From the NCBI GenBank assembly GCA_012517065.1, contig JAAYVR010000026.1:2390-66389 (forward strand): a stretch of DNA of 64,000 nt, written 5' to 3'. Below are positions 2,144-57,874 of this stretch, piece by piece. How positions within the stretch are numbered: position 1 is the first letter of the stretch; every line of letters starts with the position of its first letter. Origin of the DNA: Verrucomicrobiota bacterium. Its GTDB lineage: Bacteria > Verrucomicrobiota > Verrucomicrobiia > Limisphaerales > J093. The notes beneath the pieces are model-generated. The model was not told where the DNA came from and did not search any database. It saw nothing but the letters and a program-made list of their open reading frames with translations. The translations under genes and the position numbers were made by a program.

Positions 2144-3151
2144 TCACCTTTTGTAGTATTCCTTGTACCAAGCCACAAACTTCGGAACGCCTTCTTCGAT
2201 CGACGTTGTCGGCCTGAATCCCGTGTCGCGCGTCAGATCGTCAATGTCGGCAAACGTTGCCGGGACATCGCCCGGTTGCATCGGCAACAGACGTCGTTCT
2301 GCGCGTTTGCCAAGAGCGCGCTCGAGTACGTCAATCAGATGGAGGAGTTCGACCGGCCGGTGATTGCCAATGTTGTAAATCTTGTATGGCGCGCGGCTCG
2401 TGCCGGGGTCAGGTCCGGCACCGTCCCAACCGGGATTGCCCGCAGGCACACGATCGATCACCCGGACAACGCCTTCGACGATGTCATCGACGTAGGTGAA
2501 ATCGCGCTGCATCCGGCCGTGGTTATAGACATCGATCGGCTGTCCTTCGAGGATCGCGCATGTGAACTTGAACAACGCCATGTCAGGCCGACCCCACGGA
2601 CCGTACACGGTGAAGAACCGCAACCCGGTAGTTGGCAGGCTGTAAAGGTGGCTGTAGGTATGCGCCATCAACTCGTTGGCTTTCTTTGTGGCCGCATACA
2701 GGCTGACCGGATGATCCACGTTGTCGTGCACGGAGAAGGGCAGCTTTGTGTTGGCGCCGTACACTGAACTGGATGACGCGTACACGAGGTGCTCGATGGC
2801 ATGTTTGCGGCAGCCCTCGAGAATGTTCATGAACCCCACCAGATTGGCCTCAACGTATGCATGTGGGTTCACAAGGGAATATCGCACGCCGGCCTGAGCC
2901 GCAAGATGCGCAACGCGATCGAACTTTTCCTCCGCGAACAGGCGGTCCATCGCCGGCCTGTCGGCCACATCGAGCTTGACGAACTTGAAGTTGGGCCGGC
3001 CGTCCATCAGCGCGAGGCGCGCGCGCTTGAGCGACACGTCATAGTAATCGTTCAGGTTGTCGAGGCCGATGACAGTGTCACCCCTGTCGAGCAAACGCCT
3101 GGCCAGATGGTACCCTATGAAACCTGCGGCGCCTGTAACCAGAATTCTCAT
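2144..3151 (-). CDS. NAD-dependent nucleotide-sugar 4-epimerase (UDP-glucuronate / UDP-GlcNAcA 4-epimerase-like, CapI/TviC group)
   Basis: 335 aa. Rossmann N-terminus [16 protein letters not shown], catalytic YAATKKANE (YxxxK). ATG at 3151 overlaps the hepT stop. Confidence 0.9.
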
Positions 3152-3558
3152 GTTTTGCTGCTAAGGATTGCGCTGATGAACGCCTCAAAATCCCCGAGAT
3201 GATGATCAAGGATTCTGGATAAGATGGGGAGTTGGATTTGCTGGTAACTGTGCACTGCTATGTTTCGGAATCCGACCATGGCCTGCATTCGCCGCGACAG
3301 TTCTGCAGCAATTACCCCGGCTTGTTCCAACATTGCGAATGCATCCCGTGAGGCTTGTGGAATGCCAAGGCGCCGTTTTGCCACTTCGTACATTGCCAGA
3401 TCTATGGCCGCTTCGCAGGCACGCAACAAGTTGAGCACAATTGCGTCCTGTTTGGTCCAATCCTCGAGATTCGACGTCTGCCCTCCGTACTCATCGCGAA
3501 TACGTTTGAGGCAGCGGCGGATAATATCCGCTTTGTTGAGCTGGGTGTCTTCAGGCAT
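3148..3558 (-). CDS. hepT: HEPN-domain (DUF86) toxin HepT
   Basis: R-x4-H HEPN motif in [13 protein letters not shown]. Internal ATG at 3558 overlaps the mntA stop by 8 nt (ATGCCTGA). Its TGA overlaps the epimerase ATG (ATGA). Confidence 0.85.
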
Positions 3559-3997
3559 GGCTATTGTATTCGTCAGCGATTGCGCGGAGGACCGGGGCTC
3601 GTTCCTCATTCAAGCGCGCGTAGTTACTGAGAGTGTACATTTCAAACTCGCTGACCTCATTGGGGCGCACGCGTGCTATACAACGACCCGTTCGAATAAC
3701 CTCTTTCCTCATCACGGTGCTGGCGCGACGCAGGTCAAGCAGTTCAACCTCGAGACCGAGCAACGATGAGAGTTCCTGGCTCGCAAGATAGACCTCCCAG
3801 ACATCGCATAGCTGCGACGACAGGAAAGCCACGTCAAGATCGCTTTGCGGCCCGGATGTGCCCTGGGCGCGCGACCCAAAAACATAGACTGCAGCGGGGT
3901 CGAATCGAGCGAGAGTGCGCAAGAGAACCCCGAGCTGATCGTTGTTCAGACGCAACAACTCAAGCGTGTCATTCGTTTCGTCGAGTTTGGCTGGCAT
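3551..3997 (-). CDS. mntA: nucleotidyltransferase antitoxin MntA
   Basis: 148 aa. NTase signature YVFGSRAQGTSGPQSDLDVAFL. Sits directly upstream of and overlaps the DUF86 gene. Confidence 0.85.
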   Translation of the reverse strand: MPAKLDETNDTLELLRLNNDQLGVLLRTLARFDPAAVYVFGSRAQGTSGPQSDLDVAFLSSQLCDVWEVYLASQELSSLLGLEVELLDLRRASTVMRKEVIRTGRCIARVRPNEVSEFEMYTLSNYARLNEERAPVLRAIADEYNSHA

Positions 3998-6320: not shown

Positions 6321-6619
6321 TCAAGCTGTCGAATCCAGCGCGGCAGCCTCCAGCTTTCGTTGCAACCGGTTCAGGGCTTTCAACCTCTGAATGCAGACCT
6401 GGCGTATTGCGCCCCACGCGGCCAATCGTCGGGTGCCTGTACTTGCGCTGGCCTTGCTGATGCCAAGCAACCGAACAATGTCATCCAATGACAAAGGCGC
6501 CGCTGAAAAAATAGCAACCAATAAATCCGACCCAACGACCGCAGCAGGCCGAGTCGGCGGCACACATTGCCGGCTGTTTCGATGAATTTGAGCCTGCTTC
6601 GAGAGCGAAGGGGGGGCAT
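6321..6619 (-). pseudogene. GbsR/MarR-type winged-HTH regulator interrupted by a 1-nt frameshift
   Basis: Frame 1 (ATG 6619) reads MPPLRSRSRLKFIETAGNVCRRLGLLRSLGRIYWLLFF. Frame 2 continues SAAPLSLDDIVRLLGISKASASTGTRRLAAWGAIRQV. Together they match the GbsR-type N-terminus (FIE..G......GRIyglL....pLSlDdi...LgiSK.s.S...r.L..wGav). The junction is a 6-nt A/T homopolymer at 6506-6511. Confidence 0.6.
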
Positions 6620-6774
6620 GACGGACTCTTGCGGGGTATCAGACTGAATTGACACTTCGTGCTGGTCACTTCGCAGGTCGGCTCTGCTTTGGCGACCCGG
6701 TCTGGCGCGTGACAGCAGATTGTTCAAAACCGATTGAACGAAATATACAATCTGAACATTGACGTCAAGCAGAA

Positions 6775-6988
6775 AATGCCAGCCGCACCCCAAGCGCTTC
6801 GCGCCTGCCAACGCCCACTGCATCCGCGGCAGCGCGTGAGAAACCGTCGGGATCAGCGCGCTCTTCCTTGCGACGGAGTCGCAGGGCATATTGCCCAGCC
6901 CGGCGTGGCTGAAGGTCCGGGTGGTGCAAGAGCCGGGGGCGTTGTCCGTCAGGCGACCTTGGTTCCCGCTGCGCCGGGCTGCGAAATA
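6775..6988 (-). repeat. composite repeat, modules B + A in inverted orientation
   Basis: Reverse complement matches the A-B units at 17586-17830, 34470-34728 and 51715-51962. The long A hairpin (arms at about 6881-6902 and 6966-6988) ends 7 nt from the stop of the last hydrogenase gene. Confidence 0.85.
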
Positions 6989-6994
6989 TGCGGG

Positions 6995-7531
6995 CTAAAC
7001 CTTCTCAGCGTCCTTGTACACGATCTCAATTCCGGTCCCGACAAGTGATTCCGGGTGATAGCGAGGAATTGGTAACCTGCGCTGTTGTAATGTCACCGGA
7101 CACATCTTCTTCTCAACAAGACCCAGCGCAAGAGCAACCCCGTAAAGGATCGCTTCCGGCCGGGGCGGACATCCCGGGATGTAGTAATTAACGGGGATCA
7201 CCTTTTCAACAGGCCCGAGCACGTTGTATGAGTCGTGCCAAATCCCGCCGCCACACGCACACGAACCGATTGCAAACACCAGCTTCGGTTCCGGCATGGC
7301 TTCGTATGCGCGACGCAGTGCCGCTGCGGTGGGCCGCATTGCAGGACCCTGGCAAAGCATAACATCCGCGTGCCGCGGTGAACCCACCAGCTTTATGCCG
7401 AAGCGCTCGGCATCGTAGTAGGGCGTCAGAACGTTGAGGACTTCAATGTCACAACCGTTGCAACCGCCGCTGTTGGCATGGTAAACCCACAGCGATTTGC
7501 GAAACATCTTCCTGCAAAGTTGCTTGATCAT
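6995..7531 (-). CDS. [NiFe]-hydrogenase small subunit, NuoB/HycG-like (group 4 type)
   Basis: Motifs GGCNGCDIE, GSCACGGGIW and PGCPPRPEAI. ATG at 7531 gives an N-terminus parallel to HycG; the track ORF starts at a TTG at 7558. Confidence 0.9.
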   Translation of the reverse strand: MIKQLCRKMFRKSLWVYHANSGGCNGCDIEVLNVLTPYYDAERFGIKLVGSPRHADVMLCQGPAMRPTAAALRRAYEAMPEPKLVFAIGSCACGGGIWHDSYNVLGPVEKVIPVNYYIPGCPPRPEAILYGVALALGLVEKKMCPVTLQQRRLPIPRYHPESLVGTGIEIVYKDAEKV

Positions 7532-7558
7532 TTGTACACGACGGCAAACAACCGCCAA

Positions 7559-8083
7559 TCAGTCCAGATCAATCCTGATATCAGCCACTGTTGACTCGGT
7601 ATCAAGATAACCCTTCGAGTGGAATACCCATCTTTCACTGGCTACATCGTCGAATCTGTAACCCTTCAGTTTCAACCGTTCGAGCGGTGATGGTTCCGGG
7701 AAACACCTGCCACAACGCTGGCAAGTGCTCATGAACAGCTCGAGACGCTGGCTCAAATCGGCGATTGCGTTTGTCGCCGTTTCAAAGTCGTGGCTCATTG
7801 TGATGGCTTTTTCGGGGCAAACATCCGCACACCGGCCGCAGAATGTGCACCGCCTACCAAGGTACTGGATAATCCGCAGTTCCTGGCAAATGTCGTGCAC
7901 CAAAATCTCCCGAGCAGGACAGTTGTTCGCGCAACCCGCGCATCCGATGCATTTGGCCGCATCGAAAATCGGTCGGCCCCGAAACCGCGGCGGCACCGGC
8001 CGCGGCTCTGCCGGATAAGGCAGCGTCACGCGGCCAGCTTTGAGGCAAAGAACTGTTTCCCTGATTTTGCTCAGCAATGACAT
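7559..8083 (-). CDS. 2x[4Fe-4S] ferredoxin-like hydrogenase subunit (HycF/NuoI-like)
   Basis: 174 aa. CIGCAGCANNCP and CTFCGRCADVCP cluster motifs. Located within the hydrogenase operon. Confidence 0.9.
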   Translation of the reverse strand: MSLLSKIRETVLCLKAGRVTLPYPAEPRPVPPRFRGRPIFDAAKCIGCAGCANNCPAREILVHDICQELRIIQYLGRRCTFCGRCADVCPEKAITMSHDFETATNAIADLSQRLELFMSTCQRCGRCFPEPSPLERLKLKGYRFDDVASERWVFHSKGYLDTESTVADIRIDLD

Positions 8084-8185
8084 GACTTTGACTAGATTAT
8101 CCGCGGTGCAAACCCCGCAGTTCGTCCGGCTACAGCCGTGAAACCAACACGCGCCGCGGCTTCTGTTGGATTCGCCATGTTCGAC

Positions 8186-9109
8186 TCAGTACCCATACGT
8201 TGCAAGGATCAGCGCAAACACGGCAATCACCAGCATCCCGCCAAAGTACCGCACCGCCTGGTCCACCCGGTACCTCGCGTGTGTTGCCGCTACCAATGTC
8301 ACAAGCAGCACAAGAACCAACACCTTGCACCAGAACAGCACCCACCCAAGGGGAAACGGCAAGCCCGATCCCCACGGCACAAACAACGCCACAAACAGTG
8401 CCGCGTAAACCACCAGCTTTGCCATCCGCGCCCACTTGAACAACGCAAGTTTCGGACCCGAATACTCCGACAGCGGCCCTTCCATTATCTCAGTTTCAGC
8501 TTCCGGTATGTCGAACGGCACACGCTGTACCAGAGCTTGAAACGATGCCGCTGACACCACCAGCATCAGCAACCCGGACACTCCAAACCGCCCTTCATAG
8601 ACTGCACCCCCAAGGACCGCGTCCAGACGCAACGAGTTTGCGTGAACCGCTCCGACAATCATGGCCACCGCAAACAACGGTTCCAACGTGATCATCAGCA
8701 TCATCTCGCGGCTCATCCCCAAAAGCGAGTAGGTCGAACCCGCGGCAAGCCCCGCCATCAGCGTGCAAAGCCCACCCAGCATCAGCAAATAAATCAAGAC
8801 CAACGCATCGCCTGCCCCACCCAGCGGCGCATTAAATCCCATCGGAACAAAACAAACTGCGGCAAGCACCACGCCCATCGACAGCCACGCAGCGAATCGC
8901 TGTGCCCACGGCGCTTCCCCGGACTCGATGTCTTCCTTCCCGAGCAGCTTGAAAAGGTCGTAATAAGGCTGCAACAGCGGGGGGCCTTTTCTCGATTGCA
9001 CACGCGCCGTCACTTTCCTGAGAATGCCTTCGAACAAAGGCGCCAGCACCAGCACAAGTGCTGCGTTGCAGATGCATCCAATTATTGCCCAAAACCAACT
9101 CATGACCAT
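8186..9109 (-). CDS. integral membrane hydrogenase subunit (NuoH/HycD-like)
   Basis: 307 aa, polytopic. N-terminal block LAPLFEGILRKVTARVQSRKGPPLLQPYYDLFKLLGKE is typical of the NuoH/HycD family. Confidence 0.9.
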   Translation of the reverse strand: MVMSWFWAIIGCICNAALVLVLAPLFEGILRKVTARVQSRKGPPLLQPYYDLFKLLGKEDIESGEAPWAQRFAAWLSMGVVLAAVCFVPMGFNAPLGGAGDALVLIYLLMLGGLCTLMAGLAAGSTYSLLGMSREMMLMITLEPLFAVAMIVGAVHANSLRLDAVLGGAVYEGRFGVSGLLMLVVSAASFQALVQRVPFDIPEAETEIMEGPLSEYSGPKLALFKWARMAKLVVYAALFVALFVPWGSGLPFPLGWVLFWCKVLVLVLLVTLVAATHARYRVDQAVRYFGGMLVIAVFALILATYGY

Positions 9110-9116
9110 CAGTACC

Positions 9117-10814
9117 CTACGAATCCTTGATGTGGCGTCCGCTTTGCGCGCGTTTTGCCATTTCCCTGAGGTCGCGCGGCGTCCATACCTTGACCGCCCC
9201 AGACCTTACGTCCACAGCTTCGATCCGGTCCGTGCACGAAAAGCATGGATCGATGCTCCCCAAAGCAATTGTCATGTCCGCCAGTTGTGCGTCCCGAATC
9301 ATCGAAGGCACACCCTGCAGATTCTGGTAGGTCGGCGCTCTGACCCGCCACCGTCGAGGCCGGTTGTTCTCGCCCGTGATCACGAAATGATGCGATTCAC
9401 CACGTGGGGCTTCGACCGAAGACAGGCCGAACCGCCCGGCCGGGAGATCTTCCTTGATCGGGGTCTGGATCGGACCTGGCTCAAGTCGCGCGAGGCATTG
9501 GCGGATAATGCTTATTGATTCGAATACTTCGTCGGTTCGCACCACCAACCTGCCCCACACATCGGCGCTCTGGGCGGTTATCACTCGAAAATCGACCCTG
9601 TCATACGCCGCGTATGGATGATCGCGCCGGCAATCAATGTCAACGCCCGCTGCGCGCGCAACAGGTCCGATCAACCCCATTTCTTTCACAACACTCGCGT
9701 CAGCAACGCCAACGCCACACGTTCTTCTTTGGATGTTCTTGTCGTTCTTGACCGCCCTGGCCACGTTGTGCCATTCGCTTTCGAGCTTGTCCAAAACTGT
9801 TTTGAGCTCATCACTCAGCTCAGAGGTAATATCCCATCTTACCCCGCCAATCACGCACAAGCCGTAGGTCTTGCGATTGCCACTGATCTTCTCCGCAATC
9901 CACATCACCGGTTCCCGAACTCTGAAGGCCTGCATGAACAGCGTGTCAAACCCAACAATGTGACACGCCAAACCAACCCACAAAAGATGGCTGTGCAGCC
10001 GTTCCAGCTCCAGCATTATGGTGCGAATGTACTCCGCACGGGGCGGCGGACGCAAAGCAACGGCTTCCTCGACCGATTGCGCGTATGCAACGTTGTGCAC
10101 GCAGCCGCATATCCCGCAAATCCGCTCCGCCATGATCGGAATGTCATTGTACCCCAGCACGCTTTCAGCCAGTTTCTCGATCCCCCTGTGCACCATGAAA
10201 CCCCGATACTCGCACCCGCGAACGGTTTCCCCTTCAACGTACAGACGAAAATGTGCCGGCTCATCCAACGTCGGATGAAAAGGCCCAAACGGCACCACAG
10301 TGCAACCTTCCGGAGGATCATCGAAATCGTAGCCAGCCCCGCTCTCGTCACAATCCGGCGCCTCATCCCACTCGACATCCTTCCGCAAAGGATGCAGGCC
10401 TTCCGGCCAACCATCCGGCAAAACTAACCGCTTCGGATACGGATGCCCCACCGCCTCGATCCCAACAAGGTCACGCATTTCGCGTTCGGCCCAATTCGCC
10501 GCCGGCACAACATCGGAAATGCTCTCGATCCGCGGCGAGTCAGCCGGCAGCAGACACATCACGCTCACCAGCAACCGGTCCCGGTCAAACGCAAAGTTGT
10601 GCGCAACCATGAAACAACCCGACCACGGCCGATCGTCGGCCCCAATCGTTATCACGTACCGGGCGTCCAGCTCACGAAACAATGCCCGACACACCTCCTT
10701 CACCGATCTCGGCTCGACAAACACGTAAAGTCGGCGATCGCTCGTCAGGTCGGCGCGAATAATCGCCGCCCCAAACCGCTGCCGCAAAAAACCAAGTTTC
10801 TCTCTCGCCGCCAT
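9117..10814 (-). CDS. [NiFe]-hydrogenase large subunit fused to a NuoC-like domain (HycE-like, group 4)
   Basis: 565 aa. N-terminal NuoC-like part, then NiFe ligand motifs RICGICGCVH and DPCFSCTDR. Confidence 0.95.
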   Translation of the reverse strand: MAAREKLGFLRQRFGAAIIRADLTSDRRLYVFVEPRSVKEVCRALFRELDARYVITIGADDRPWSGCFMVAHNFAFDRDRLLVSVMCLLPADSPRIESISDVVPAANWAEREMRDLVGIEAVGHPYPKRLVLPDGWPEGLHPLRKDVEWDEAPDCDESGAGYDFDDPPEGCTVVPFGPFHPTLDEPAHFRLYVEGETVRGCEYRGFMVHRGIEKLAESVLGYNDIPIMAERICGICGCVHNVAYAQSVEEAVALRPPPRAEYIRTIMLELERLHSHLLWVGLACHIVGFDTLFMQAFRVREPVMWIAEKISGNRKTYGLCVIGGVRWDITSELSDELKTVLDKLESEWHNVARAVKNDKNIQRRTCGVGVADASVVKEMGLIGPVARAAGVDIDCRRDHPYAAYDRVDFRVITAQSADVWGRLVVRTDEVFESISIIRQCLARLEPGPIQTPIKEDLPAGRFGLSSVEAPRGESHHFVITGENNRPRRWRVRAPTYQNLQGVPSMIRDAQLADMTIALGSIDPCFSCTDRIEAVDVRSGAVKVWTPRDLREMAKRAQSGRHIKDS

Positions 10815-10838
10815 GTTAACAGTTTGTCACCTCGATTC

Positions 10839-12788
10839 TCACCCGCTTTTCCGGCCGTTTCCTCTTGATGCCACAGCCGATTCTTCAACCATGCTCCCGC
10901 GCCACCCGCCACCAACCCACCTGAACAGCCTCTTTATCTCCCCGTAATACCCGTGCGCTCGATAACGATTGTGTTCGCCTTCCCGCGCATAACCGCACAA
11001 CCACGGTTCAGCGATGCGCCGACTCGCGCCCCCCGCCCTGCTCACCCACAACGCAACCAGCAGCCCTCCCACCAACACCAAAGCAACACCCGCAGGAGCA
11101 AACACCGCCGCGCCATTGTCCAGTGTGACTCCCCACCATGCACCGCCGGAGGCTGTTGTTCCTGCTGCCAATGCTTCGCCCCAGCCCTGATGACTCTGCC
11201 GCAACGCCGTCCCAATCAGGACCACACCCAACGCGGGCCAAATTCCCAGCAATACGCAGGCCGCCGCAAGAAACACCTGCGGCACCTGCATCAATCCCCC
11301 GACCTCAAGCCGACCGCGGCTTGCAAACCGTTCTTTCACCAACTTGCTGCTGCGCGACAGGAAGCTCGCACCAAAGAACTTCATGAACGAAGCCAATGTA
11401 AGCGCGCTTGTAAGAATTGCTATCAGACCGCACACAGCAAGGTACTTGACGGCGCTGCTGCCGGTAATGCACGCCACATAAATGTGCCACTTGCTGGCAA
11501 ACCCGTTGAACAACGGCACCCCCGCAATCGAGAACGACGCAATGCACGCAGTCGCCGCCGTCAGCGGCATCAGGCGCACCAATCCTCCCATCCTATTCAG
11601 GTCTTGTGTGCCAGTGGCCCACAACAACGAGCCCGCGTTCAAAAACAGCAGCGCCTTGAACAGCCCGTGATTAAGCACGTGAAACAACGCGCCGCACAAA
11701 CCCACCGCCGCAAGCGTCGCGCCAATGCTACCCCCTTTGGCCAGCAGCACCATGCACGCCCCTGCCCCAAGCATGATGTAACCGATCTGCCCTATGCTGT
11801 GGAACGCCAGCAACCGCTTCGATTGTTCCTGTCGCAGCGCCTGCATCGTGCCGGTGAAAAGCGTGATCGTCCCCAGCGCTACAACCAATGCGCCCCACGA
11901 TGCCATCGGGAATTCTGCGCGCACCGCCGGCGACGGCAGCCACAGAAAATACCGCATCAGACCGTATGCGCCTGTCTTGATCATCACGCCCGAGAGCATC
12001 GCGCTCACTGGCGAAGGCGCCGCCGGGTGCGCGTCGGGCAGCCAAAACTGCCCAAACGGCCACATCCCCATCTTTATGCCAAACCCGATCAGGAACAAAC
12101 CAAACGCAATCGCCGATGCAGTCGGCCGCGTCTGCAACATGGCAGGCAAATTGCTCCTGACACTCTCGAAATCGTATTTCAGCCCGCCTGCGCCGGTGGC
12201 AGCCGCGCCGGTAAGCGCAAGGAGTTCCGCGCCAACCATCGTTGCCACACACGCAATCTGCATCATCAGAAGGTACTTGTTCGCTGCGCGGACGTTCTGG
12301 CGGATGCGGTGCTCGTATCTGATGAGCGCATAGCCCGGCATGGTCATCATTTGCCAGAAAATGAAGAAAAACCACATCATGTCCGTCGTGGTCAGCAACC
12401 CGTACATCGCCGCCAGAAAAACAAGAAAATAGGGATAGTACCTGCCAACACCGTACCCGCTGTAGTGGTCCATGTACCGGATGCCGTAAAGCGCTGCCGG
12501 CACCGCAACCAGCACCGACAACACCAAAAACACCGCGCTCAAACCGTCCACATGAAGCCGCAACGCAAATCCCAGTGCCGGCATCTGAAGGAACTGGGCC
12601 GGTTCTTCAGACGCTCCGCCCGCAAAAACCCGGGCCACAGCCGCCAGCACCAGAGCACCAGAAAGCGCCGTCACGAGAAACGCAGCCCAACCCGCCAGCC
12701 TCCTGCTGGAAGCAACAGCAGCGGTCAGCACCGCGCCGCCAAGGCACAGAAAAATCGCTCCTACGACTGCTTGTTCAGGCGTCAACAC
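10839..12788 (-). CDS. antiporter-like membrane subunit (NuoL/M/N, HycC/HyfB-like)
   Basis: 649 aa, about 14-16 TM. Conserved proton-pump blocks (WLPDAHPAAPSPVSAMLSGVMIKTGAYG, HSIGQIGYI). GTG start overlaps the stop of the protease gene. Confidence 0.9.
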   Translation of the reverse strand: MLTPEQAVVGAIFLCLGGAVLTAAVASSRRLAGWAAFLVTALSGALVLAAVARVFAGGASEEPAQFLQMPALGFALRLHVDGLSAVFLVLSVLVAVPAALYGIRYMDHYSGYGVGRYYPYFLVFLAAMYGLLTTTDMMWFFFIFWQMMTMPGYALIRYEHRIRQNVRAANKYLLMMQIACVATMVGAELLALTGAAATGAGGLKYDFESVRSNLPAMLQTRPTASAIAFGLFLIGFGIKMGMWPFGQFWLPDAHPAAPSPVSAMLSGVMIKTGAYGLMRYFLWLPSPAVRAEFPMASWGALVVALGTITLFTGTMQALRQEQSKRLLAFHSIGQIGYIMLGAGACMVLLAKGGSIGATLAAVGLCGALFHVLNHGLFKALLFLNAGSLLWATGTQDLNRMGGLVRLMPLTAATACIASFSIAGVPLFNGFASKWHIYVACITGSSAVKYLAVCGLIAILTSALTLASFMKFFGASFLSRSSKLVKERFASRGRLEVGGLMQVPQVFLAAACVLLGIWPALGVVLIGTALRQSHQGWGEALAAGTTASGGAWWGVTLDNGAAVFAPAGVALVLVGGLLVALWVSRAGGASRRIAEPWLCGYAREGEHNRYRAHGYYGEIKRLFRWVGGGWRGSMVEESAVASRGNGRKSG

Positions 12789-13330
12789 CTGGCCACCTCC
12801 AGCATCTCTCCAATCAACGACTCCAAAACGTTCAAGCTCTCTCTCACCGGCGCCGATAGACCGGTTCCGCGTTTCACTGACTCAGGTTTCACGCCCAAAA
12901 GCCACACTCGGGCCCCGCCAACTTCTTCGATATATTTCCCCAACAAACCTAGCCCGATTCTGTGAGTCGAAACCTCCAAACGCAATTCTTCCAACTCGTT
13001 GCAGTCCATCAGCACAATCGTCCCTGGGTCGCCTTCACACGCAACCGCATCCACAAACAACACCCGATCAAACCCGCCTTCAACCAGCCGACGCGAATGC
13101 CGCTCAGGTTCAACGCCCGCAACAATAAACTCGCAGTTCGCCCGCCCTCCAAACCCTCCAAATCGAGCGTCTTCGCCATCGTCGCCCAGAACACCAAGCC
13201 TGTTCATGAGCCCGTTCACCAGACACACTCCGAACCCGTCGTCGCCGCTCTCGGTGTTGCCGATGCCGACCACGGCCACGCGCCCTGGAGCGCCAAGGAT
13301 GCTGTGCAAGTGTTGTCTGATGTCGTTCAT
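12782..13330 (-). CDS. hydrogenase maturation endopeptidase (HycI/HyaD family)
   Basis: 182 aa. RVAVVGIGNTESGDDGFG and FVDAVACEGDPGTIVLMD motifs. Its ATG shares one base with the upstream stop (TGATG). Confidence 0.85.
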   Translation of the reverse strand: MNDIRQHLHSILGAPGRVAVVGIGNTESGDDGFGVCLVNGLMNRLGVLGDDGEDARFGGFGGRANCEFIVAGVEPERHSRRLVEGGFDRVLFVDAVACEGDPGTIVLMDCNELEELRLEVSTHRIGLGLLGKYIEEVGGARVWLLGVKPESVKRGTGLSAPVRESLNVLESLIGEMLEVARC

Positions 13331-14235
13331 CAGATGTCTTCGCCGAGTTTCTTGATTTGCTCGTAAGTGAAAACCGGCCCGTCAACGCAAACGTACGCAA
13401 CCCCGATGCAGCAATGGCCGCACTTGCCAACCCCGCATTTCATGTAGCGTTCAAGCGTCGAAACAATGTCGCGTTCCGCAAAACCGAGTTGCAGCAGGTC
13501 CTTGATCGCAAAACGAAACATCACGGGCGGTCCGCACACAAACGCCGTCGAGTTCGCCACCGCCACGTTGATCCCCGGTTTCTTCAGCAGGCTGCCCACC
13601 ACGCCAACATTCCCTTTCCACCCGTCCGCCGGGCGATCAACCGTGACATGGCACTCGAGCCCCGCAGATTCTTCCCACGCTTTCAAATCCCGCACGTACA
13701 TCAAATCTGACGGCGTCCTCGCCCCGTAAAAAACCTGAAGCCGACCGTAACGCTCCCGATGAGCCATCGCATATACAATGCAGGACCTCAACGGGATCAA
13801 ACCTATCCCGCCCGCCACAAACACAAGGTTCCGACCGTAGTATTGTTCCATCGGAAACCCGTTGCCATACGGACCACGCACGCCGAAAATCTCGCCCGGC
13901 TTCAGAGCATGAAGCGCAGCCGTGCAACTGCCCACATTCCGAACCGTGAAAAACAGTTCGTCCTCAGTCGGGCTCGGCGGCAACGAAGCCGGAAACTCCC
14001 CCACGCCAAACAATGAGACCTGCGCAAACTGACCCGGCCTGAACGCACGGAATTTCGCTTGCTCAGCCGCATCAACAAAATGCCAGTAAAAGGTTTTTAC
14101 TTCGGCAATTTCGTCCTGGACCCCGTCGAGCACGGCCAGTTTTGGCATATAAACGTTCTCAACCGGGCCGGGAATCGCGCCATCGAGCACGCCACGACCT
14201 TCAGCCGCTACGGTGATTTTGCCATTAACGCCCAT
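13330..14235 (-). CDS. FAD/NAD(P)-binding oxidoreductase with C-terminal [2Fe-2S] (sulfhydrogenase gamma / AsrB / PyrK-like)
   Basis: FNR-like fold blocks (RPGQFAQVSLFGVGEFP, LVFVAGGIGLIPL) and CGVGKCGHCCIG cluster motif. ATG at 14235; the track ORF begins at a TTG at 14265. Confidence 0.85.
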   Translation of the reverse strand: MGVNGKITVAAEGRGVLDGAIPGPVENVYMPKLAVLDGVQDEIAEVKTFYWHFVDAAEQAKFRAFRPGQFAQVSLFGVGEFPASLPPSPTEDELFFTVRNVGSCTAALHALKPGEIFGVRGPYGNGFPMEQYYGRNLVFVAGGIGLIPLRSCIVYAMAHRERYGRLQVFYGARTPSDLMYVRDLKAWEESAGLECHVTVDRPADGWKGNVGVVGSLLKKPGINVAVANSTAFVCGPPVMFRFAIKDLLQLGFAERDIVSTLERYMKCGVGKCGHCCIGVAYVCVDGPVFTYEQIKKLGEDI

Positions 14236-15325
14236 CAGCCGGAACAGGTTCGATCTTTTCTTCAAGCGCTGCAGCGCGCCTGATCATTTCTACAACGCTT
14301 GGCATGCCAACATCGCCGTGGCACACGGCGGCGCACCGGCCGCATCCCACGCATGCCATGCTCAATTCACGTTGAATGAAATAATGCGCCAGTTTCCTGA
14401 AAAACCGGCGGTTGCGCCTGTCGTGCACGCTCTTTCGCGGATTGTGCCCGCCTGCCATCCTCGTAAACCCGCCAAGCGCACACGAATCCCAAATCCGCAC
14501 ACGCTCGATCTCGTCGCGCCCTGTTGGCCTGTCCGACACAGTGAAACACGTGCAAGCCGGACAAACATAGGTGCATCCGCCGCACTCCAAACAACGGTTG
14601 CCAATTTCCTCCCATGTCCTCTCAGGCACGGACCCTTGGGACACATATCGGACCGTTGCACTGAACCAACAGGTGGTTGTCTTGAATCTCTTTCGCACTT
14701 CGCTGAGGATTTGCCGCCGGCGCTCGACATGTTCCTGTGCAGCTCTTGTGAAGATTGGTTCTTCGAACAGAGCTTCCCCCGCAGACGACCCTGCAACCGC
14801 AAGCAGCTCGCCTGCCCCAAGGTCCATCAGTTGCAGGTCGAAATGGTCCCTCGCCGCCGGCCCGGTATCAGTGCATACACAGAAACAGGCGTCGCTGATG
14901 TCCAACTCCGCATTCGTGCAGACAACGTTCACCAGCAACAGTTCCCGGCGCCGCCTCGCGTAGTACGTGTCCGGAAATTCACGGCCGAGATAAAACCGGT
15001 CAAGGTGGTATATCCCCGCCACATCGCATGAACGAATCCCAAATATCGCGCGCTTGGGCGCCTCATAGGTCGCCTGAATGTCATACGCGCCGTTGGCGCG
15101 TTTCACCCGCAGCAACCGCTCGATCGGCGGCAGCACAAACCGCTTCGGAGGATAATACGGATTCGGCACATGCAACCGCACACGGCCGATGTTCTCATCC
15201 GTCACCGTGTCATAGTAGGTGTCGCGCCCTTTGTTGCAGAAAGGCGCAACGACTTCGTACCCGCGCCGGCGAATCGCGTTCACCAGCATCGCAAGGTCTT
15301 CGCTGCGCATCAAACGCGCTTTCAT
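14225..15325 (-). CDS. 4Fe-4S dicluster protein (sulfhydrogenase beta / AsrA-like)
   Basis: 366 aa. CLECGGCTYVCPACTC and CVGCGRCAAVCH motifs. ATGA overlap with the upstream Mo-pterin gene. Confidence 0.85.
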   Translation of the reverse strand: MKARLMRSEDLAMLVNAIRRRGYEVVAPFCNKGRDTYYDTVTDENIGRVRLHVPNPYYPPKRFVLPPIERLLRVKRANGAYDIQATYEAPKRAIFGIRSCDVAGIYHLDRFYLGREFPDTYYARRRRELLLVNVVCTNAELDISDACFCVCTDTGPAARDHFDLQLMDLGAGELLAVAGSSAGEALFEEPIFTRAAQEHVERRRQILSEVRKRFKTTTCWFSATVRYVSQGSVPERTWEEIGNRCLECGGCTYVCPACTCFTVSDRPTGRDEIERVRIWDSCALGGFTRMAGGHNPRKSVHDRRNRRFFRKLAHYFIQRELSMACVGCGRCAAVCHGDVGMPSVVEMIRRAAALEEKIEPVPADGR

Positions 15326-17349
15326 TCTTTCACCTTTTCGATGCGCACTGGAATAAGTTGCTCGCCCGTGCCAGCACCGCGCATCTGCCGCTCGACTTCG
15401 CGCACAAAATACGGAACAAAAACCGTCCCACGACGCACTTCCTTGGTGACGCGCGCAACTGAAACCGCCTCGCCCGTGGAAGAACAGAGGCGAATCTTCG
15501 CCCCGTCTCTTACGCCGAGCATCGCCGCGTCTTCGGGATTGATTTCGACAAACCCATTCGGATAGTCCAGCAAAAGTATCCGATACTCCCGTTTCAGGGT
15601 CTCACTGTGGCGAATGAGCACATTCTGATGCCAGTAATAAAGCGAGTGCCCAAGTACCAACGTGAACGGGTATTCCTTTGACATTGCAGCGCCGCCAGAA
15701 GCTTCACGCGGCACGGGAACAAACTTGAAACGACGTGCCGGCCCGTCTTCCCCAAACAAAAACCGCGTGCCCAACGGCCGGTCTTTGGTGCATGGCCATT
15801 GCCGACCGTAATCCCGTGCCAGATTCTCGTACGACGCGCCACTGTAAAACGGAACCGCAGCGCCAATTTCTTCCATCACATCCGAACTGTCATTGTACCG
15901 CCAGTCCGCTCCCATCAATTGCGCGACGCGCGCAATCTGCTGCCACGCAGGCGTCAAACTCGGCGCCGATTCCAACACCTTTTCCGCAAGCTGAATCCGG
16001 CGCTCGGTGTTCGTGAAAGATACGCGCTCCTCACCAAAAGCAGTTGTCGGCAAAACCACATGCGCACGACGCGCTGTCTCTGTCAGAAAAATGTGCTGCA
16101 CAACAACCAACTCCATCCCGTCGAGCACCTTCGCCGCATCCCCAAACAACGCGGTGTTCACAGGGTCATACCGGCAGAGCCATAAAGCTCTAAGGTCTGA
16201 AGTGGAATTCCTCCCGAACAGTTCTCTCGCGCCCCGGCCGGGAACCGACGGAAGCCGCGCGCCCCAAAGCCGCTCGAAACGCGCACGCGCCTCATCGCAA
16301 ATGACAGGCTGGTACCCGGGGAACCGGTCCGGCAACATCCCCATGTCGCAAACACCCTGAAGATTGTTTTGCTCGGCAAGGGCGTAGATGCCCGCTCCTT
16401 CCTTTCCGACGTTTCCACACAGCAGCGCAAGGTTCACAATCGCGCGAATCGTTTCCTTGCTGCGCGCTTCCATCCCTGTCGAATAGAGCAGGGCCGCTCT
16501 TTTGGCGCGTGCGTAAATTAGGGCCGCTTCCTCGATCTGAGCAGGATTAACACCGCATTCCTCCGCTGCCGACCAAAGATCGTATTCCTGCAATCGCGCG
16601 AGAAACGCGCCGTAATCCTTGCAGTGCGCGCGGATGAAACCCAGATCGCGCAATCCCCGATCGTAAATCACCTTCGCCATCGCACCGTAAAGGACTGCCT
16701 CTGTTCCGGGATGCACTTGAAGGAACAGATCGGCGCTTTCGGCCACCCGATGTCGCCGGGCATCAATCACGATCAGTTTTGCCCCATTTAGTTTGGCCCG
16801 AATGACAACGCCCCCAACAGTGGGCAATTGCAGACCAAGGTCCACACCGTCCACCACAATCACATCACTCAGATCCAGCTCGCCAATCGAGTTGGTCGTG
16901 GCTGGCACTCCAATCATTTCGTCCAAAACCTGAATGCTGTTGTTGCAGTAGGCGCCTGTCCCGTGATCGACATTGTTCGTTCCCACAACCCCGCGCGCGA
17001 GTTTCTGCAGCAAATAGCTCTCCTCGTTCGAGCATCGTGGTGAATTGAAGAATGCAAGTGCATCTGGACCGTGCCGGTCTCGTATGCTTTTCAGCCGGTC
17101 TGCAACATAACCCAATGCCTCGTCCCACCCGACCTCGACAAGCTCCCTACCGCGCCGCATGAGCGGCATTTTCAATCGATCGGGTGAACTGGCCACCTCG
17201 TGCACGTGCCAGCCCCGAACGCAAATCCTTCCACGGTTCGCCGGATGCGACATGCTCGGATAAACGCCGGTGATCCGGTTTCCCTCGGTTTCGAGGTAAA
17301 TACCGCATCCGACACCGCAAAAAGTGCACGTGGTCAGTCGTTGGGCCAT
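15322..17349 (-). CDS. FdhF-like molybdopterin (bis-PGD) oxidoreductase subunit with non-canonical active-site residues
   Basis: 675 aa. N-terminal 4Fe-4S motif CTFCGVGCG, and strong block similarity to formate dehydrogenase H (GTNNVD, QNNLQGVCDMGMLPDRFPGYQ). However it has Tyr-Cys where FDH has (Sec/Cys)-His, and Ala where FDH has the catalytic Arg. No in-frame TGA. Confidence 0.85.
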   Translation of the reverse strand: MAQRLTTCTFCGVGCGIYLETEGNRITGVYPSMSHPANRGRICVRGWHVHEVASSPDRLKMPLMRRGRELVEVGWDEALGYVADRLKSIRDRHGPDALAFFNSPRCSNEESYLLQKLARGVVGTNNVDHGTGAYCNNSIQVLDEMIGVPATTNSIGELDLSDVIVVDGVDLGLQLPTVGGVVIRAKLNGAKLIVIDARRHRVAESADLFLQVHPGTEAVLYGAMAKVIYDRGLRDLGFIRAHCKDYGAFLARLQEYDLWSAAEECGVNPAQIEEAALIYARAKRAALLYSTGMEARSKETIRAIVNLALLCGNVGKEGAGIYALAEQNNLQGVCDMGMLPDRFPGYQPVICDEARARFERLWGARLPSVPGRGARELFGRNSTSDLRALWLCRYDPVNTALFGDAAKVLDGMELVVVQHIFLTETARRAHVVLPTTAFGEERVSFTNTERRIQLAEKVLESAPSLTPAWQQIARVAQLMGADWRYNDSSDVMEEIGAAVPFYSGASYENLARDYGRQWPCTKDRPLGTRFLFGEDGPARRFKFVPVPREASGGAAMSKEYPFTLVLGHSLYYWHQNVLIRHSETLKREYRILLLDYPNGFVEINPEDAAMLGVRDGAKIRLCSSTGEAVSVARVTKEVRRGTVFVPYFVREVERQMRGAGTGEQLIPVRIEKVKE

Positions 17350-17501: not shown

Positions 17502-17585
17502 GCAACTCCTGGAATCTCCCACCGATTCACGACCGAACACTGATTGACTCCCCGGCCGTTGCCCCGGCTTCATTGGCCGGGCGCC

Positions 17586-17953
17586 CTAGCCCGCATATTT
17601 CCCAGCCCGGGGTAGCCGGAACCAAAGTCGCCCAACGGGCAACGCCCCCGGCTCTCGCACCCCCCGGACCTTCAGCCGCGCCGGGCTGGGAAATATGCCC
17701 TGCGACTCCGTCGCCGGGAAGAGCGCGCTGATCAAGCCCCCACTGCACGCGGCGCCGCCGCGGTTGCAGTGGGCGTTGGTAGGCGCGAAGCGCTTGGAGT
17801 GCGGCAGCTTGCTGCCGCTTTGTTTCTTATGCGCGAACAACGTGTCTGGCACTCTATTTACATCTCCACTGATGCATTCGGCGCGCCGGGCACGGCACTC
17901 CCTACCATTGATGAAATCTTGCGCAAGGCAGGGCGGGCGCTCCGCGCACACCG
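17586..17953 (+). repeat. composite repeat, modules A-B-C-K
   Basis: A is a long hairpin (cccgcatatttcccagcccgg ... ccgggctgggaaatatgccc). B contains gcgaagcgcttggagtgcggcagcttgctgccgctttg. C is the 25-nt joint. K is gatgaaatcttgcgcaaggcagggcgggcgctccgc. Each module recurs elsewhere in the window. Confidence 0.9.
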
Positions 17954-18192
17954 CAAACAAAGTGCCTGTCACCCTATTGCCGAGGCTGGCGCCGCAGCCA
18001 GCCACGAAGCTGCAGTTGGTTTGCGAGCTGGCTGATGGACAGCCGAAGGGGTCCGATGAGCAACAAAGTGCCTGTCACCCTATTGCCGAGGCTGGCGCTG
18101 CGGTCGGGCATGAAGCTGTAGTTGGTTTGCGAGCTGGCAGATGGACCGCCGCGGGAGCCTGATGAGCAACAAAGTGCCTGTCACCCTATTGC
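17954..18192 (+). repeat. tandem repeat, about 106-nt unit x 2.3
   Basis: Units start at 17954, 18061 and 18167, each beginning ca(a)acaaagtgcctgtcaccctattgc. The 80-nt remainders of units 1 and 2 are homologous to each other. Confidence 0.9.
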
Positions 18193-18738: not shown

Positions 18739-19010
18739 ATCCGACTCACCCCCGAAGATCGTGCTGTTGTGAGCGCCTTACTTGCTGCCAAAGAAAGAGA
18801 TACAGAGAAACTGAGCAAACTCGCGGCGTGAAAATCTTCGCAAAGATGAGTGATTTTTCAATATAGCAATGCAGCCTGGCGCAGCCGGAGCCAAAGTTGC
18901 CCGATGGGCACTGATCCGGCGCCTGCGCACGCTGACCAGAGCCCTCTGCCACGCCGGGCTGCCAAATATCCGCTGCGACTCCGTCGCAGGCAAAACCACT
19001 CTGATCAAGC
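18739..19010 (+). repeat. composite repeat, 3' part of module D joined to module A
   Basis: Matches 26277-26415 and 34868-35000 (D, including the conserved 30-codon frame and AT-rich tail), then the A body gccggagccaaagttgcc ... ctgcgactccgtcgc. Confidence 0.85.
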
Positions 19011-19116
19011 CACGCACCGGACGTGTCACTGCCAGAGTATGTCCCAACCACATCTAACTCTTCCGCCCAAAGGCGGGACTCGAACAGCCCGGAGCGCGAA
19101 AACGTTGCTGTGATAG

Positions 19117-19639: not shown

Positions 19640-19890
19640 AGCTCCGGCGCGCCAGGGACGGCGCGCCCTACCGTGGATGAAATCTTGCGCAAGGCATGGC
19701 GGGCGCTCCGCACACACAACAAACAACGTGTCTGTCCCCATATGGTCTCATTGGATCGCGCCGCTGATCCCGATGGTTTTTCACGCGCTGCCGCACATGC
19801 AGTGCGCGTTGGTAAACGCGAAGCGCTTGGAGTGCGGCAGCTTGCTGCCGCTTTGTTTTTGTGCGCAAACAACGTGCCTGCGCCCGTTGC
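19640..19890 (+). repeat. composite repeat, modules K-C-B-C'
   Basis: Same module sequences as at 17736-17980, in a different order. Abuts the 3' end of the EamA-like gene. Confidence 0.85.
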
Positions 19891-19931
19891 TGAGCGCTGC
19901 GCTTTCAAGCGTCGCACGTTGAAAGCTCCTT

Positions 19932-34469: not shown

Positions 34470-35052
34470 GCACTTGCCTGCGCGGCCTAACCCGGAAATC
34501 TCGCAGCCCGGCGTAGCCGGAACCAAAGTGGCCCCACGGGCACCGCACGGCTCCTGCACCCCTTCGGACCGTCACCCGCGCCGGGCTGCGAAATATCTGC
34601 TGCGACTCCGCCGCTGGGAAAAGCGCGCTGATACCAATGGTTCTTCACGCGCTGCCGCGGATGCAGTGGGCGTTGGTAGGCGCGAAGCGCTTGGAGTGCG
34701 GCAGCTTGCTGCCGCTTTGTTTTTATGCGCAAACAACGTGCCTGTCCCCATATCGGTACCCGAGGGGTTCCTCCACGGACTTCGGCAAGCGCGGATTCGA
34801 ACAAGAGGCAATTTGCGGGCCAGGCCGGAATCAGAGTGCAAAACCCAAACAACGAGCCTGTCACTTTATCCGACTCACCCATAAAGGCCGTACCGTTGTG
34901 ACCGCCTTACTGGCTGCAAGAGAAGCAGATACGGAGAAACTGACCAAGCTGGCAGGTTGAGAATCTTCGCAAATATGAATGATTTTTAAATATAACAATA
35001 CAGCCTGACCACACCAAGAAACCCAAAGCCTCATTCCCTCGAGATTCCCGGG
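34470..35052 (+). repeat. composite repeat, modules A-B-C-D followed by a half E element
   Basis: A 34470-34625, B to 34728, C 34729-34755, D to 35000, E half (inverted) 35001-35052. Fills the whole accC / C_GCAxxG intergenic space. Confidence 0.9.
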
Positions 35053-51566: not shown

Positions 51567-51714
51567 TTCTTTGATCTCCCGCCATGGCTTTTTCACATTG
51601 CATAACAATTATCCCATTATTCAAAGCCGTCGGCAACGGTAAGCATATTTAGCAAAAATGCAAAACAGCTAATAATCAGGAGCCGTTACTCACAGAATAG
51701 TTACAGTTTTCTTA

Positions 51715-52040
51715 TCCGTAGCCCTCATGTTTCCCAGCCCGGCGAAGCCGGAACCAGAGTCGCCTGACGAGCAACGCCCCCCGGCTCTTGCACACCCCCT
51801 GACCTTCAGTCACGCCGGTTCGGGGAATATGCCCTGCGACTCCATCCCAAGGAAAAGCGCGCTGATACCAATGGTTTCTCACGCGCTGCCGCGGATGCAG
51901 TGGGCGTTGGTTGGCGCGAAGCGCTTGCAGTGCGGCAGCTTGCTGCCGCTTTGTTGTTATGCACAAACAACGTGCCTGGAACCAGATCGGCATGGTGTAG
52001 AAAATAACGTGTCTGTCCCCATATCGGCACCATATCGGCA
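51715..52040 (+). repeat. composite repeat, modules A-B-C'-C
   Basis: A 51715-51865, B to 51962, variant C 51963-51990, C 52000-52027 plus the short duplication caccatatcggca. Confidence 0.9.
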
Positions 52041-53640: not shown

Positions 53641-54264
53641 CTATTTCCTTTCGTAGCCGGAGCACGGAATGCACACCGGCTGGCCGTCTTTCATCCGTGC
53701 ATAGCGTTCAAAAACATATTCGCCGCACACGCTGCACTTGGTCTTGTTGAACGATCCCTTGATCGGCGTGTAGGTGAAGTCTGGTTTGTCCTCCACCTTG
53801 AATATCGCTTCGTCCGGCTGGGCGTAGGTCCACTGGATAACTTCCTGCCGCACCGGCAGCGGAATTTGCGACGGCTCGACGCCCTTTTTGCGATGAGCGA
53901 AAAACTCGAACTTGCCCAACGCGTCCACAAAGTCGGGACGGATGGAAACGCGCACCGCGCCCTTCTTCGGATGATAGAAAGTCGCCGCGAGCTTGCCGTA
54001 AAACGTCTTGGCGATGGTCAGCTTGCCGTAGGTCGCGCCGGTGGCAACCTGGATGCCGTCCATCAGGCAGGTCTGCGGATGCGCCTCGCCGAGCTCGGGA
54101 AAGACGTAAAAGCCGTGGTCTGGCTCGTGTTCAACACCCAGGCGCGCCATCGCGAGTTTCGCCATACGATAGCCCAGCGGCATGAATGGACATTGGTGGC
54201 CATGGAACTCGAACGCCCAGTCGGGCGGGATGTGATTGGTCCTTGCGGTTTGACTCGTACTCAT
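53641..54264 (-). CDS. FmdE/FwdE-family protein with C-terminal zinc ribbon
   Basis: FHGHQCPFMPLGYRM core and CSVCGEYV...CIPCSG ribbon. ATG at 54264 is preceded by AAAGGAGAG. Confidence 0.85.
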   Translation of the reverse strand: MSTSQTARTNHIPPDWAFEFHGHQCPFMPLGYRMAKLAMARLGVEHEPDHGFYVFPELGEAHPQTCLMDGIQVATGATYGKLTIAKTFYGKLAATFYHPKKGAVRVSIRPDFVDALGKFEFFAHRKKGVEPSQIPLPVRQEVIQWTYAQPDEAIFKVEDKPDFTYTPIKGSFNKTKCSVCGEYVFERYARMKDGQPVCIPCSGYERK

Positions 54265-54316
54265 AGTTCTGCTCTCCTTTCTTGTATTGTTGTTGCTTCG
54301 TGTCAGTTGACACGCC

Positions 54317-55081: not shown

Positions 55082-55130
55082 CCTGTTCCTTGACGGGCGG
55101 GCGCTGATTCCGCGCCGGGCTGTTGCGTTC

Positions 55131-57590: not shown

Positions 57591-57609
57591 CCGGCACCCA
57601 GCTTGTAGC

Positions 57610-57826: not shown

Positions 57827-57874
57827 CATGCGGCAGATTGTCAAACTGCGCTATGACTTCTTCAGAGTGCTCTT

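Follow-up and report, generated by a model that had tools for sequence, protein, structure and literature searches.

Formate hydrogenlyase (FHL) of Escherichia coli, a membrane-bound complex known as FHL-1 (FdhF-HycBCDEFG, PDB 7Z0S/7Z0T), is one of the systems to which the gene cluster described here has to be compared. In this complex, the formate dehydrogenase (FDH) FdhF docks via its iron-sulfur (FeS) cluster on HycB, and HycB connects to HycF. Two other systems share individual features with the cluster, namely the soluble NADPH-sulfhydrogenase I of Pyrococcus furiosus (group 3b, PDB 9NEZ) and the FdhF-like domains of NuoG and StnC, which provide precedents for an inactive FDH fold (PMC10482914). 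Furthermore, an "enigmatic" group 4 hydrogenase has been described in Saganbacteria RX5A, in which an unclassifiable molybdenum (Mo) oxidoreductase is found together with asrA/asrB and whose function was left open (Matheus Carnevali et al., 2019; PMC6349859). Here, we describe a nine-gene operon from a Verrucomicrobiota bacterium, located in a stretch of 64,000 nucleotides (contig JAAYVR010000026.1 of assembly GCA_012517065.1, positions 2,390 to 66,389; hereafter the window), and in particular its first gene, which encodes the FdhF-like subunit A. We consider it probable that subunit A is a Mo-free FeS adaptor or scaffold, comparable to NuoG, within an NAD(P)H-linked energy-converting hydrogenase.

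Subunit A carries the Pfam domains Molybdop_Fe4S4 (PF04879), Molybdopterin (PF00384) and Molydop_binding (PF01568), is encoded by a continuous open reading frame (ORF) in which an in-frame TGA is absent, and matches, in phmmer searches of the PDB, the FdhF of HDCR (5.6e-129), F420 FdhA (5.9e-121) and E. coli FdhF (1.5e-111). E. coli FdhF, taken from NC_000913, was aligned with the query and 120 database homologues using MAFFT, and the same register was obtained as in the phmmer alignments with solved FDHs, with U140 falling on Y134, H141 on C135 and R333 on A325. An earlier note on this DNA, which relied on a by-eye alignment, had claimed exactly these replacements, and the minus-strand translations NVDHGTGAYCNNSIQVL (16924-16974, with the codons of Tyr134-Cys135 at 16950-16945) and AGIYALAEQNNLQGVCD (16345-16395, with the Ala325 codon at 16377-16375) bear it out. 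The E. coli FdhF block given there was right as well (NC_000913 reads NNVDCCARV(U)HGPSV), the alignment reveals no Cys-His dyad and no Arg at the canonical positions, and the N-terminal 4Fe-4S motif is conserved as stated there. The same alignments add the replacements of G334 by E326, K44 by R45 and R138 by G132, such that none of the residues Sec/Cys140, catalytic His141 and Arg333, and Lys44 of FdhF/FdhA-type FDHs is present in subunit A.

These replacements are not confined to the query. Position 134 is Tyr in all 120 database homologues, while in 80 genomes of the clade to which the query belongs (see below) FdhF position 140 is occupied by Tyr in 75, Phe in three, and His and Ser in one each, and position 333 by Thr, Ala, Ser or Gly, never by Arg. 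The replacements thus do not represent an error in a single sequence. Judged from its sequence, subunit A is a paralogue of the cytoplasmic FdhF/FdhA-type FDHs which has lost formate oxidation.

It is extremely improbable that subunit A is a genuine FDH with an unconventional active site and that the operon encodes an FHL as annotated. Annotation based on hidden Markov models (JGI names) does label the protein FDH alpha or FdhF, E. coli HycE is the nearest match of the hydrogenase core, and an acidobacterial fdhF+hyf cluster, which may or may not be this operon, has been called FHL (Hausmann et al., 2018). However, all known catalytic requirements, i.e., Sec/Cys140, His141, Arg333 and Lys44, are gone, and the exchange K44R alone leaves E. 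coli FdhF with 7% activity and a partly retained cluster (PMC12176258). Moreover, the score of subunit A for the NCBIfam model TIGR01591 (Fdh-alpha), 560.9 bits, lies below the curated cutoff of 666.25, and HycB is absent.

The distribution of subunit A was determined by an exhaustive search of 50%-identity representatives, which places the query in a discrete clade (P0121, 61% identity; P0123, 52%), the next sequences being at most 40% identical. A species scan with one genome per species found this query clade in 128 species genomes, all of them metagenome-assembled genomes (MAGs), from Verrucomicrobiota, Acidobacteriota, Methylomirabilota, Nitrospirota, Tepidisphaeraceae, Thermodesulfobacteriota and Rectinemataceae. 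Bogs, fens, peat and soil are the source of many of these MAGs. The window shares 95% identity with a Verrucomicrobiota MAG, and DNA sequencing runs place the organism in sludge and wastewater metagenomes. In a neighbor-joining tree, which is crude and in which long-branch effects may group non-canonical sequences artificially, the query clade pairs with a second group (P0126, P0130, P0208) as its sister, and both lie inside a wider radiation of short FdhF-like proteins without the triad. This sister clade comprises 129 genomes of Spirochaetota/Leptospirales, Aminicenantes, Eubacteriales and others.

For the analysis of gene order, 80 loci were fetched per clade. All nine genes are present in the order ABCDEFGHI in 56 of the 80 query-clade loci, nearly all others being prefixes cut at contig ends. 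The same nine-gene order is complete in 54 of the 80 sister-clade loci, and most of the remaining ones likewise stop where a contig ends. Gene order is thus fixed across more than 10 phyla and between two clades whose A subunits are 35% identical. Conversely, when the search was started from the HycE-like protein, subunit A was present in all 33 metagenome loci with enough upstream DNA and is accordingly an obligate part of the operon.

The comparison of 80 query-clade and 78 sister-clade genomes separates what is retained in both groups from what is not. The four FeS-ligating Cys residues and an Arg at FdhF position 44 are found in all 158 genomes, and Cys/Sec at position 140 and Arg at position 333 in none. 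The occupants of the former pocket positions differ: the query clade carries Tyr at FdhF position 140, Glu at 334 (the invariant Glu326), Arg at 402 (78 genomes, with His in two), Leu at 181, His at 429 and Ala at 478, where the sister clade carries Gly, Gly, Asp (75 genomes, with Glu in three), Asn, Gly and Gly, respectively. Between the clades, subunit A is the most diverged redox subunit (35% identity, versus 40% for B, 52% for C, 52% for F, 54% for H and 67% for I). The same architecture is thus maintained without shared residues in the former active site, which argues against a conserved new catalytic center and favors a role of subunit A that would depend on its fold and FeS cluster.

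The extent of the loss was assessed on 130 near-full-length 50%-identity representatives aligned with FdhF, 64 of which carry the canonical signature K44/R138/C(U)140/H141/R333/G334. Among the 75 reference columns, each at least 90% conserved in these 64 canonical FDHs, the canonical proteins keep a mean of 96% (minimum 88%), the query 71%, E. coli NapA, a nitrate reductase with a true Mo-bis-molybdopterin guanine dinucleotide cofactor, 67%, and the cofactor-less E. coli NuoG 40%. The 22 positions lost in the query include K44, R138, C140, H181, G305, G453, D478, R581, N662, D670 and K679. E. coli NapA keeps all 11 of these and E. coli NuoG lacks 10 of them (G453 is kept); as they are retained in NapA and almost all lost in NuoG, they serve the cofactor and electron transfer rather than formate chemistry.

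Several further changes affect the cofactor site. Bulky side chains occupy conserved glycines (Gly402 to Arg393, Gly453 to Val443), and Lys44, which is strictly conserved between the [4Fe-4S] cluster and the pterin in FDHs, is an invariant Arg45 in the query clade. FdhF Asp179 and Ser180 align with Leu173 and Gln174 of the query, the clade having mostly Arg and Gln there; in E. coli FdhF, these two residues form hydrogen bonds to the pterin (PMC12176258). In domain IV, Arg581 is lost and, farther downstream, the C-terminal N...D...P..K motif is absent. The C-terminal part of the FdhF/query alignment is less certain but is backed by Pfam controls: the Molydop_binding match of the query covers profile positions 11-78 of 110 (55 bits) and that of NuoG positions 18-81 (31 bits), while the matches of FdhF, NapA and the canonical FDH P0141 extend to position 110 (86-99 bits). 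Furthermore, the former cofactor positions D202, P203, G305, R581 and K679 vary within the query clade, which indicates relaxed constraint. Most pterin-binding residues are lost, beyond what the earlier note had described, and binding of a Mo/W-bis-pyranopterin guanine dinucleotide has most probably been lost in subunit A.

In principle, subunit A could still bind a pterin cofactor, either without a protein ligand, like arsenite oxidase, or with Tyr134 close to the metal, and oxidize or reduce a substrate other than formate, with electrons passing to the hydrogenase and/or, via beta-gamma, to NAD(P)+. The high similarity to real FDHs (E-values down to 1e-129; 32-40% identity), the many retained FDH-conserved residues and the high conservation of Tyr134, Glu326 and Arg393 within the clade speak for such an enzyme, as does the fact that at least 10 separate non-canonical 50%-identity clusters likewise carry Tyr at position 140 (P0128, P0132, P0158, P0163, P0175, P0191, P0196, P0199, P0234, P0268). 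One of these, P0191 (K44, R138, Y140, H141), keeps 89% of the FDH-invariant columns, looks otherwise cofactor-competent and may still bind the cofactor. We nevertheless regard this explanation as unlikely for the query, given the loss of the 11 positions common to FDHs and NapA, the Gly-to-Arg and Gly-to-Val exchanges and the missing C-terminal N/D/K motif. Phe replaces Tyr134 in three clade members, so that the hydroxyl group is dispensable, and the sister clade, with an identical operon, has Gly at position 140 and different former pocket residues throughout. Tyr is not among the metal ligands known to us in this enzyme family, which are Sec, Cys, Ser, Asp, or none. A related proposal of the earlier note, a new substrate with a Cys ligand shifted by one position, does not hold, as Cys135 is not conserved: the position is Cys in 96, Ser in 15 and Gly in seven of the 120 homologues, Cys in 45, Ser in 15, Arg in eight and Thr in four of the 80 query-clade genomes, and His, Gln or Tyr in the sister clade. 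The alternative offered in the same place, a NuoG-like non-catalytic electron-transfer scaffold, is supported by the 11 lost FDH/NapA positions, the short Molydop_binding match and the invariant FeS site.

The reading of subunit A as a Mo-free FeS adaptor or scaffold has to accommodate a number of observations which weigh against it. FDH-like residues are much better preserved in the query than in NuoG (71% vs 40%), among them N108-E109, Q327, N329, Q331-G332, E440, R450 and Q453, and for this reason one pterin or a remodelled cofactor site may persist. Some replacements are themselves invariant within the clade (Tyr134, Glu326, Arg393, His419 and Tyr571-Tyr572-Trp573) and could constitute a new functional site. 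The four-domain Mo-oxidoreductase fold is assigned from Pfam and from Foldseek with an AlphaFold2 model (predicted local distance difference test 74, predicted template-modeling score 0.79), which yields TM scores of 0.76-0.80 to ForC, FdhF and NapA and confirms the fold alone; the model is moderately confident, and its weakest parts are the FeS domain and the loops of the former cofactor pocket. Complex formation and the electron path are read from synteny only, a search for RNA sequencing runs found none, and producing H2 with NAD(P)H as the donor is endergonic under standard conditions. Genes for the biosynthesis of the Mo cofactor were not found among the ORFs scanned in the window, a span of 64 kb that is uninformative in this regard. 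The phyla carrying the query have other Mo enzymes, and the presence of such genes would not discriminate between the possibilities.

Nine genes, A to I, make up the operon; they occupy the minus strand between 17349 and 6995, and the gene of subunit A comes first (Table 1). The operon shares with E. coli FHL-1 the HycE-like large subunit with fused NuoC/NuoD parts, HycD, HycF and HycG, a single antiporter-like subunit and the protease HycI, as well as a cytoplasmic FdhF-fold subunit with one [4Fe-4S] cluster. In the translation of the HycE-like subunit, the motifs RICGICGCVH and DPCFSCTDR with the NiFe cysteines can be read, and a C-terminal extension is consistent with cleavage by HycI. Assignment to the group 4f/Ehf hydrogenases was considered and set aside as irrelevant, the large subunit being closest to HycE. 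The operon differs from FHL-1 in the missing Sec/Cys-His-Arg-Lys and cofactor-binding residues of subunit A, in the absence of HycB (no HycB-like gene was found in 6995-17349, where all nine ORFs are otherwise assigned by Pfam/NCBIfam) and in two additional genes for homologues of the NADPH-sulfhydrogenase beta and gamma subunits. The operon has no catalytic FDH and no HycB and contains an NAD(P)H-flavoprotein module. These features support the conclusion, drawn conditionally in the earlier note, that it is not an FHL, and the name "formate hydrogenlyase" is a misannotation.

The beta and gamma proteins are closest to the corresponding subunits of P. furiosus NADPH-sulfhydrogenase I (9nez_B, 3.2e-41; 9nez_C, 3.7e-56), with which they share the FAD/NAD(P)H and [2Fe-2S] motifs. 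In gamma, GGxGxxPLRS and CGxGKCGHC...C are aligned, and the nucleotide and [2Fe-2S] motifs are intact. In contrast to sulfhydrogenase I, which has a soluble alpha-delta dimer, the hydrogenase of the query is of the membrane-bound Hyc-type group 4, with an FdhF-like subunit placed in between. The presence of sulfhydrogenase-like beta and gamma suggests an NAD(P)(H)-coupled H2 metabolism, and this module, which the earlier note did not mention, likely points to NAD(P)H as the real substrate. The Saganbacteria RX5A cluster, compared by its description and not by sequence, differs in that it also includes cooF and Mrp-like subunits; the main text of that report contains no residue-level analysis of the Mo subunit (PMC6349859). 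The literature searched yielded no study of this operon family at the residue level and no biochemical one.

Table 1. Features of the operon, of subunit A and of the dispersed repeats in the window.
Feature	Position	Strand	Basis or remark
A, FdhF-like subunit, 675 aa	15322..17349	minus	DMSO-reductase-family fold; no Tat signal; no FDH catalytic residues
[4Fe-4S] motif of A, Cys8, Cys11, Cys15, Cys43	17221..17328	minus	all four kept
Arg45 of A for FdhF Lys44, just downstream of Cys43	codon 17217-17215	minus	
Tyr134-Cys135 of A at FdhF Sec140-His141 position	16945..16950	minus	alignment and translation
Ala325-Glu326 of A at FdhF Arg333-Gly334 position	16372..16377	minus	alignment and translation
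Arg393-Tyr394 of A for Gly402-Glu403 of the G-E-(N/D)-P cofactor-binding motif	16168..16173	minus	alignment
Remodelled domain IV segment of A (G-H-S-L-Y-Y-W-H-Q-N ... R-E-Y-R-I-L-L-L-D-Y-P)	15550..15651	minus	5-residue insertion
B, beta, HydB/ShyB/AsrA-like poly-FeS protein (Fer4_22)	14225..15325	minus	Pfam; NCBIfam sulfhyd_HydB 2.9e-47
C, gamma, HydG/ShyC/AsrB-like FAD/NAD(P)H-binding protein with C-terminal [2Fe-2S] motif	13330..14265	minus	Pfam NAD_binding_1, DHODB_Fe-S_bind
D, HycI-type hydrogenase maturation endopeptidase	12782..13330	minus	Pfam HycI, TIGR00142
E, HyfB/HycC-like antiporter-type membrane subunit	10839..12788	minus	Proton_antipo_M; hydrogenase 4 subunit B 2.6e-115
F, HycE-like [NiFe] large subunit, fused NuoC+NuoD	9117..10814	minus	PDB 7z0s_E (E. 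coli HycE) 6.6e-126; Pfam
G, HycD/NuoH-like membrane subunit	8186..9109	minus	Pfam NADHdh 1.5e-62
H, HycF/NuoI-like 2x[4Fe-4S] subunit	7559..8083	minus	NCBIfam FHL iron-sulfur subunit 1.5e-30
I, HycG/NuoB-like small subunit	6995..7558	minus	Pfam Oxidored_q6 2.2e-31
Copies of the dispersed repeat	6782-6997, 17573-17825, 18934-19011, 19679-19892, 34474-34756, 41350-41422/41910-42123, 51705-51990		

In the proposed mechanism, the gene products would form one complex in which gamma (FAD, [2Fe-2S], NAD(P)H), beta (poly-[4Fe-4S]), subunit A ([4Fe-4S]) and HycF-HycG-HycE are assembled on a HycD/HyfB-like membrane arm. Subunit A would be the adaptor that joins the NAD(P)H-oxidizing beta-gamma part to the hydrogenase, and might also relay electrons via its single cluster, taking the place held by FdhF and HycB in E. 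coli FHL-1, with a putative electron chain gamma-beta-A-HycF-HycG-HycE. Alternatively, it might be a dead-end scaffold, like the N7 cluster of NuoG or the C1/C2 clusters of StnC. Overall, the complex would catalyze NAD(P)H + H+ <-> NAD(P)+ + H2, with ion translocation either driving this reaction or being driven by it. H2 evolution from NAD(P)H is favorable only when H2 is low or when a gradient contributes energy. The peat and sludge habitats would fit fermenters disposing of reductant beside H2 consumers.

A different assignment of the same genes, which we judge to be distinctly improbable, is that they encode two separate co-transcribed enzymes, a soluble NAD(P)H-dependent A-beta-gamma oxidoreductase and an Ech-like ferredoxin-dependent membrane hydrogenase. 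The gene for HycI lies between ABC and the hydrogenase genes, A-beta-gamma modules stand alone elsewhere, and Ech-type hydrogenases are known to require no extra input module. These points have to be set against the gene order, which is fixed in spite of the divergence of the two clades, the overlap of adjacent genes, such as the stop of A with the start of B, and the lack of an evident substrate for a soluble A-beta-gamma enzyme with a dead A. In addition, the degenerate A was seen only joined to Hyc-type genes, and canonical A with beta-gamma only without them.

The latter observation derives from scans aimed at the genomic context of P0125, P0127 and P0128, which returned mostly canonical FDHs. 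About 50 of these 80 loci (L168-L247, e.g., L172, L178, L238 and L244; MAGs of Nitrospirota, Thermodesulfobacteriota, Desulfuromonadales, Saganbacteria and Methanothrix) carry FdhA-beta-gamma or gamma-FdhA-beta, with hydrogenase genes absent within 10 kb. These modules have the same three genes as the query, in the order A-B-C or C-A-B, but their A keeps K44/R138/Cys or Sec140/H141/R333/G334, and hydrogenase genes do not follow. Stand-alone A-beta-gamma is presumably a formate:NAD(P)+ oxidoreductase, in which electrons would pass from Mo via the [4Fe-4S] cluster of A, beta and gamma (FAD) to NAD(P)+; no biochemical characterization of such FdhA-HydB-HydG-type enzymes was found in the searched literature. 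The simplest history suggested by this pattern is that a Hyc-type hydrogenase recruited an FdhA-beta-gamma module, whose A subsequently lost its molybdenum site. P0125, P0127 and P0128 have lost the triad, keep H181, G402, G453, D478 and D670 and are less degenerate; they may represent intermediates, or pterin enzymes that lack a protein ligand. The sole recovered P0128-like locus (L248) contains A, then a beta-like gene, and then the contig end.

A Mo-free adaptor or scaffold of this kind would most closely resemble the C-terminal domain of NuoG/Nqo3 and StnC's FdhF-like domain (PDB 8OH5). These share with subunit A the FDH fold, the loss of ligand and pterin-binding residues, the retained N7-type [4Fe-4S] cluster, the truncated Molydop_binding match and the location in an NAD(P)H-oxidizing FeS module of a complex-I-like or FeS enzyme. 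Subunit A differs from both in being a separate protein of the size of FdhF, to which no N-terminal 2Fe-2S/4Fe-4S domains are fused, and in representing an independent lineage in the neighbor-joining tree; compared with NuoG, it is much less degenerate in the FDH-invariant columns, and its flavoprotein partner is of the PyrK/HydG type (FAD), not of the NuoF type (FMN).

Beyond the operon itself, at least seven copies of a repeat of about 220 nt, which may be a MITE or REP-like element, are dispersed over intergenic parts of the window (Table 1). Two inverted copies (6851-6997 and 17587-17733; 147 nt, 90% complementary) flank the hydrogenase operon; they were considered as the boundary of a mobile element, an idea that was rejected as they are copies of the dispersed family. 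The ORFs beginning with MPCDSVA.KSALI, at 6380-6889 (minus) and 17695-18162 (plus), are translations of the repeat and not genes. A 106-nt unit is tandemly duplicated (87% identical) at 17956-18167, just upstream of the promoter region of the operon. Elsewhere, a 153-aa ORF at 3148-3609 (minus), located between sugar-nucleotide genes, carries, as read from its translation alone, an Rx4HxY motif (FRNIAVHSY) typical of HepT/DUF86 toxins. Genes for a protein with an FmdE domain (53641-54324), an exporter of the TauE/SafE type (54317-55159) and a multihaem cytochrome of 921 aa (55131-57896) follow each other at 53641-57896 (minus), and a 442-aa protein with a thioredoxin and a MerB (alkylmercury lyase) domain is encoded at 60866-62194 (minus).

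As a tentative extension of the adaptor reading, the operon could represent a new class of ion-translocating NAD(P)H:H+ oxidoreductases, in which an FHL-type hydrogenase is combined with a sulfhydrogenase-type flavoprotein module and an FDH-derived FeS adaptor. Such a class, widespread in uncultured bacteria (Verrucomicrobiota, Acidobacteriota, Methylomirabilota, Nitrospirota, Spirochaetota and Aminicenantes of peat, soil and sludge), would be an independent and still sequence-traceable replay of the NuoG step in complex I. The known group 4 hydrogenases are, to our knowledge, supplied with electrons by ferredoxin, formate or CO rather than by NAD(P)H, and an NAD(P)H-linked membrane hydrogenase would, if true, fill a gap among them. 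In genome-resolved metagenomics, an FdhF-like gene beside hyc/hyf-like genes is often read as FHL. At least 257 species-level genomes, from more than 10 phyla prominent in peat, wetlands, soils and anaerobic digesters, would be misread in this way, and such calls would skew models of how formate and H2 flow through methane-producing ecosystems. Finally, subunit A would offer a young and alignable case of the transition from a catalytic molybdoenzyme to an FeS scaffold, a process assumed for NuoG in the evolution of complex I, with canonical FdhA-beta-gamma relatives at hand for comparison with the degenerate protein.

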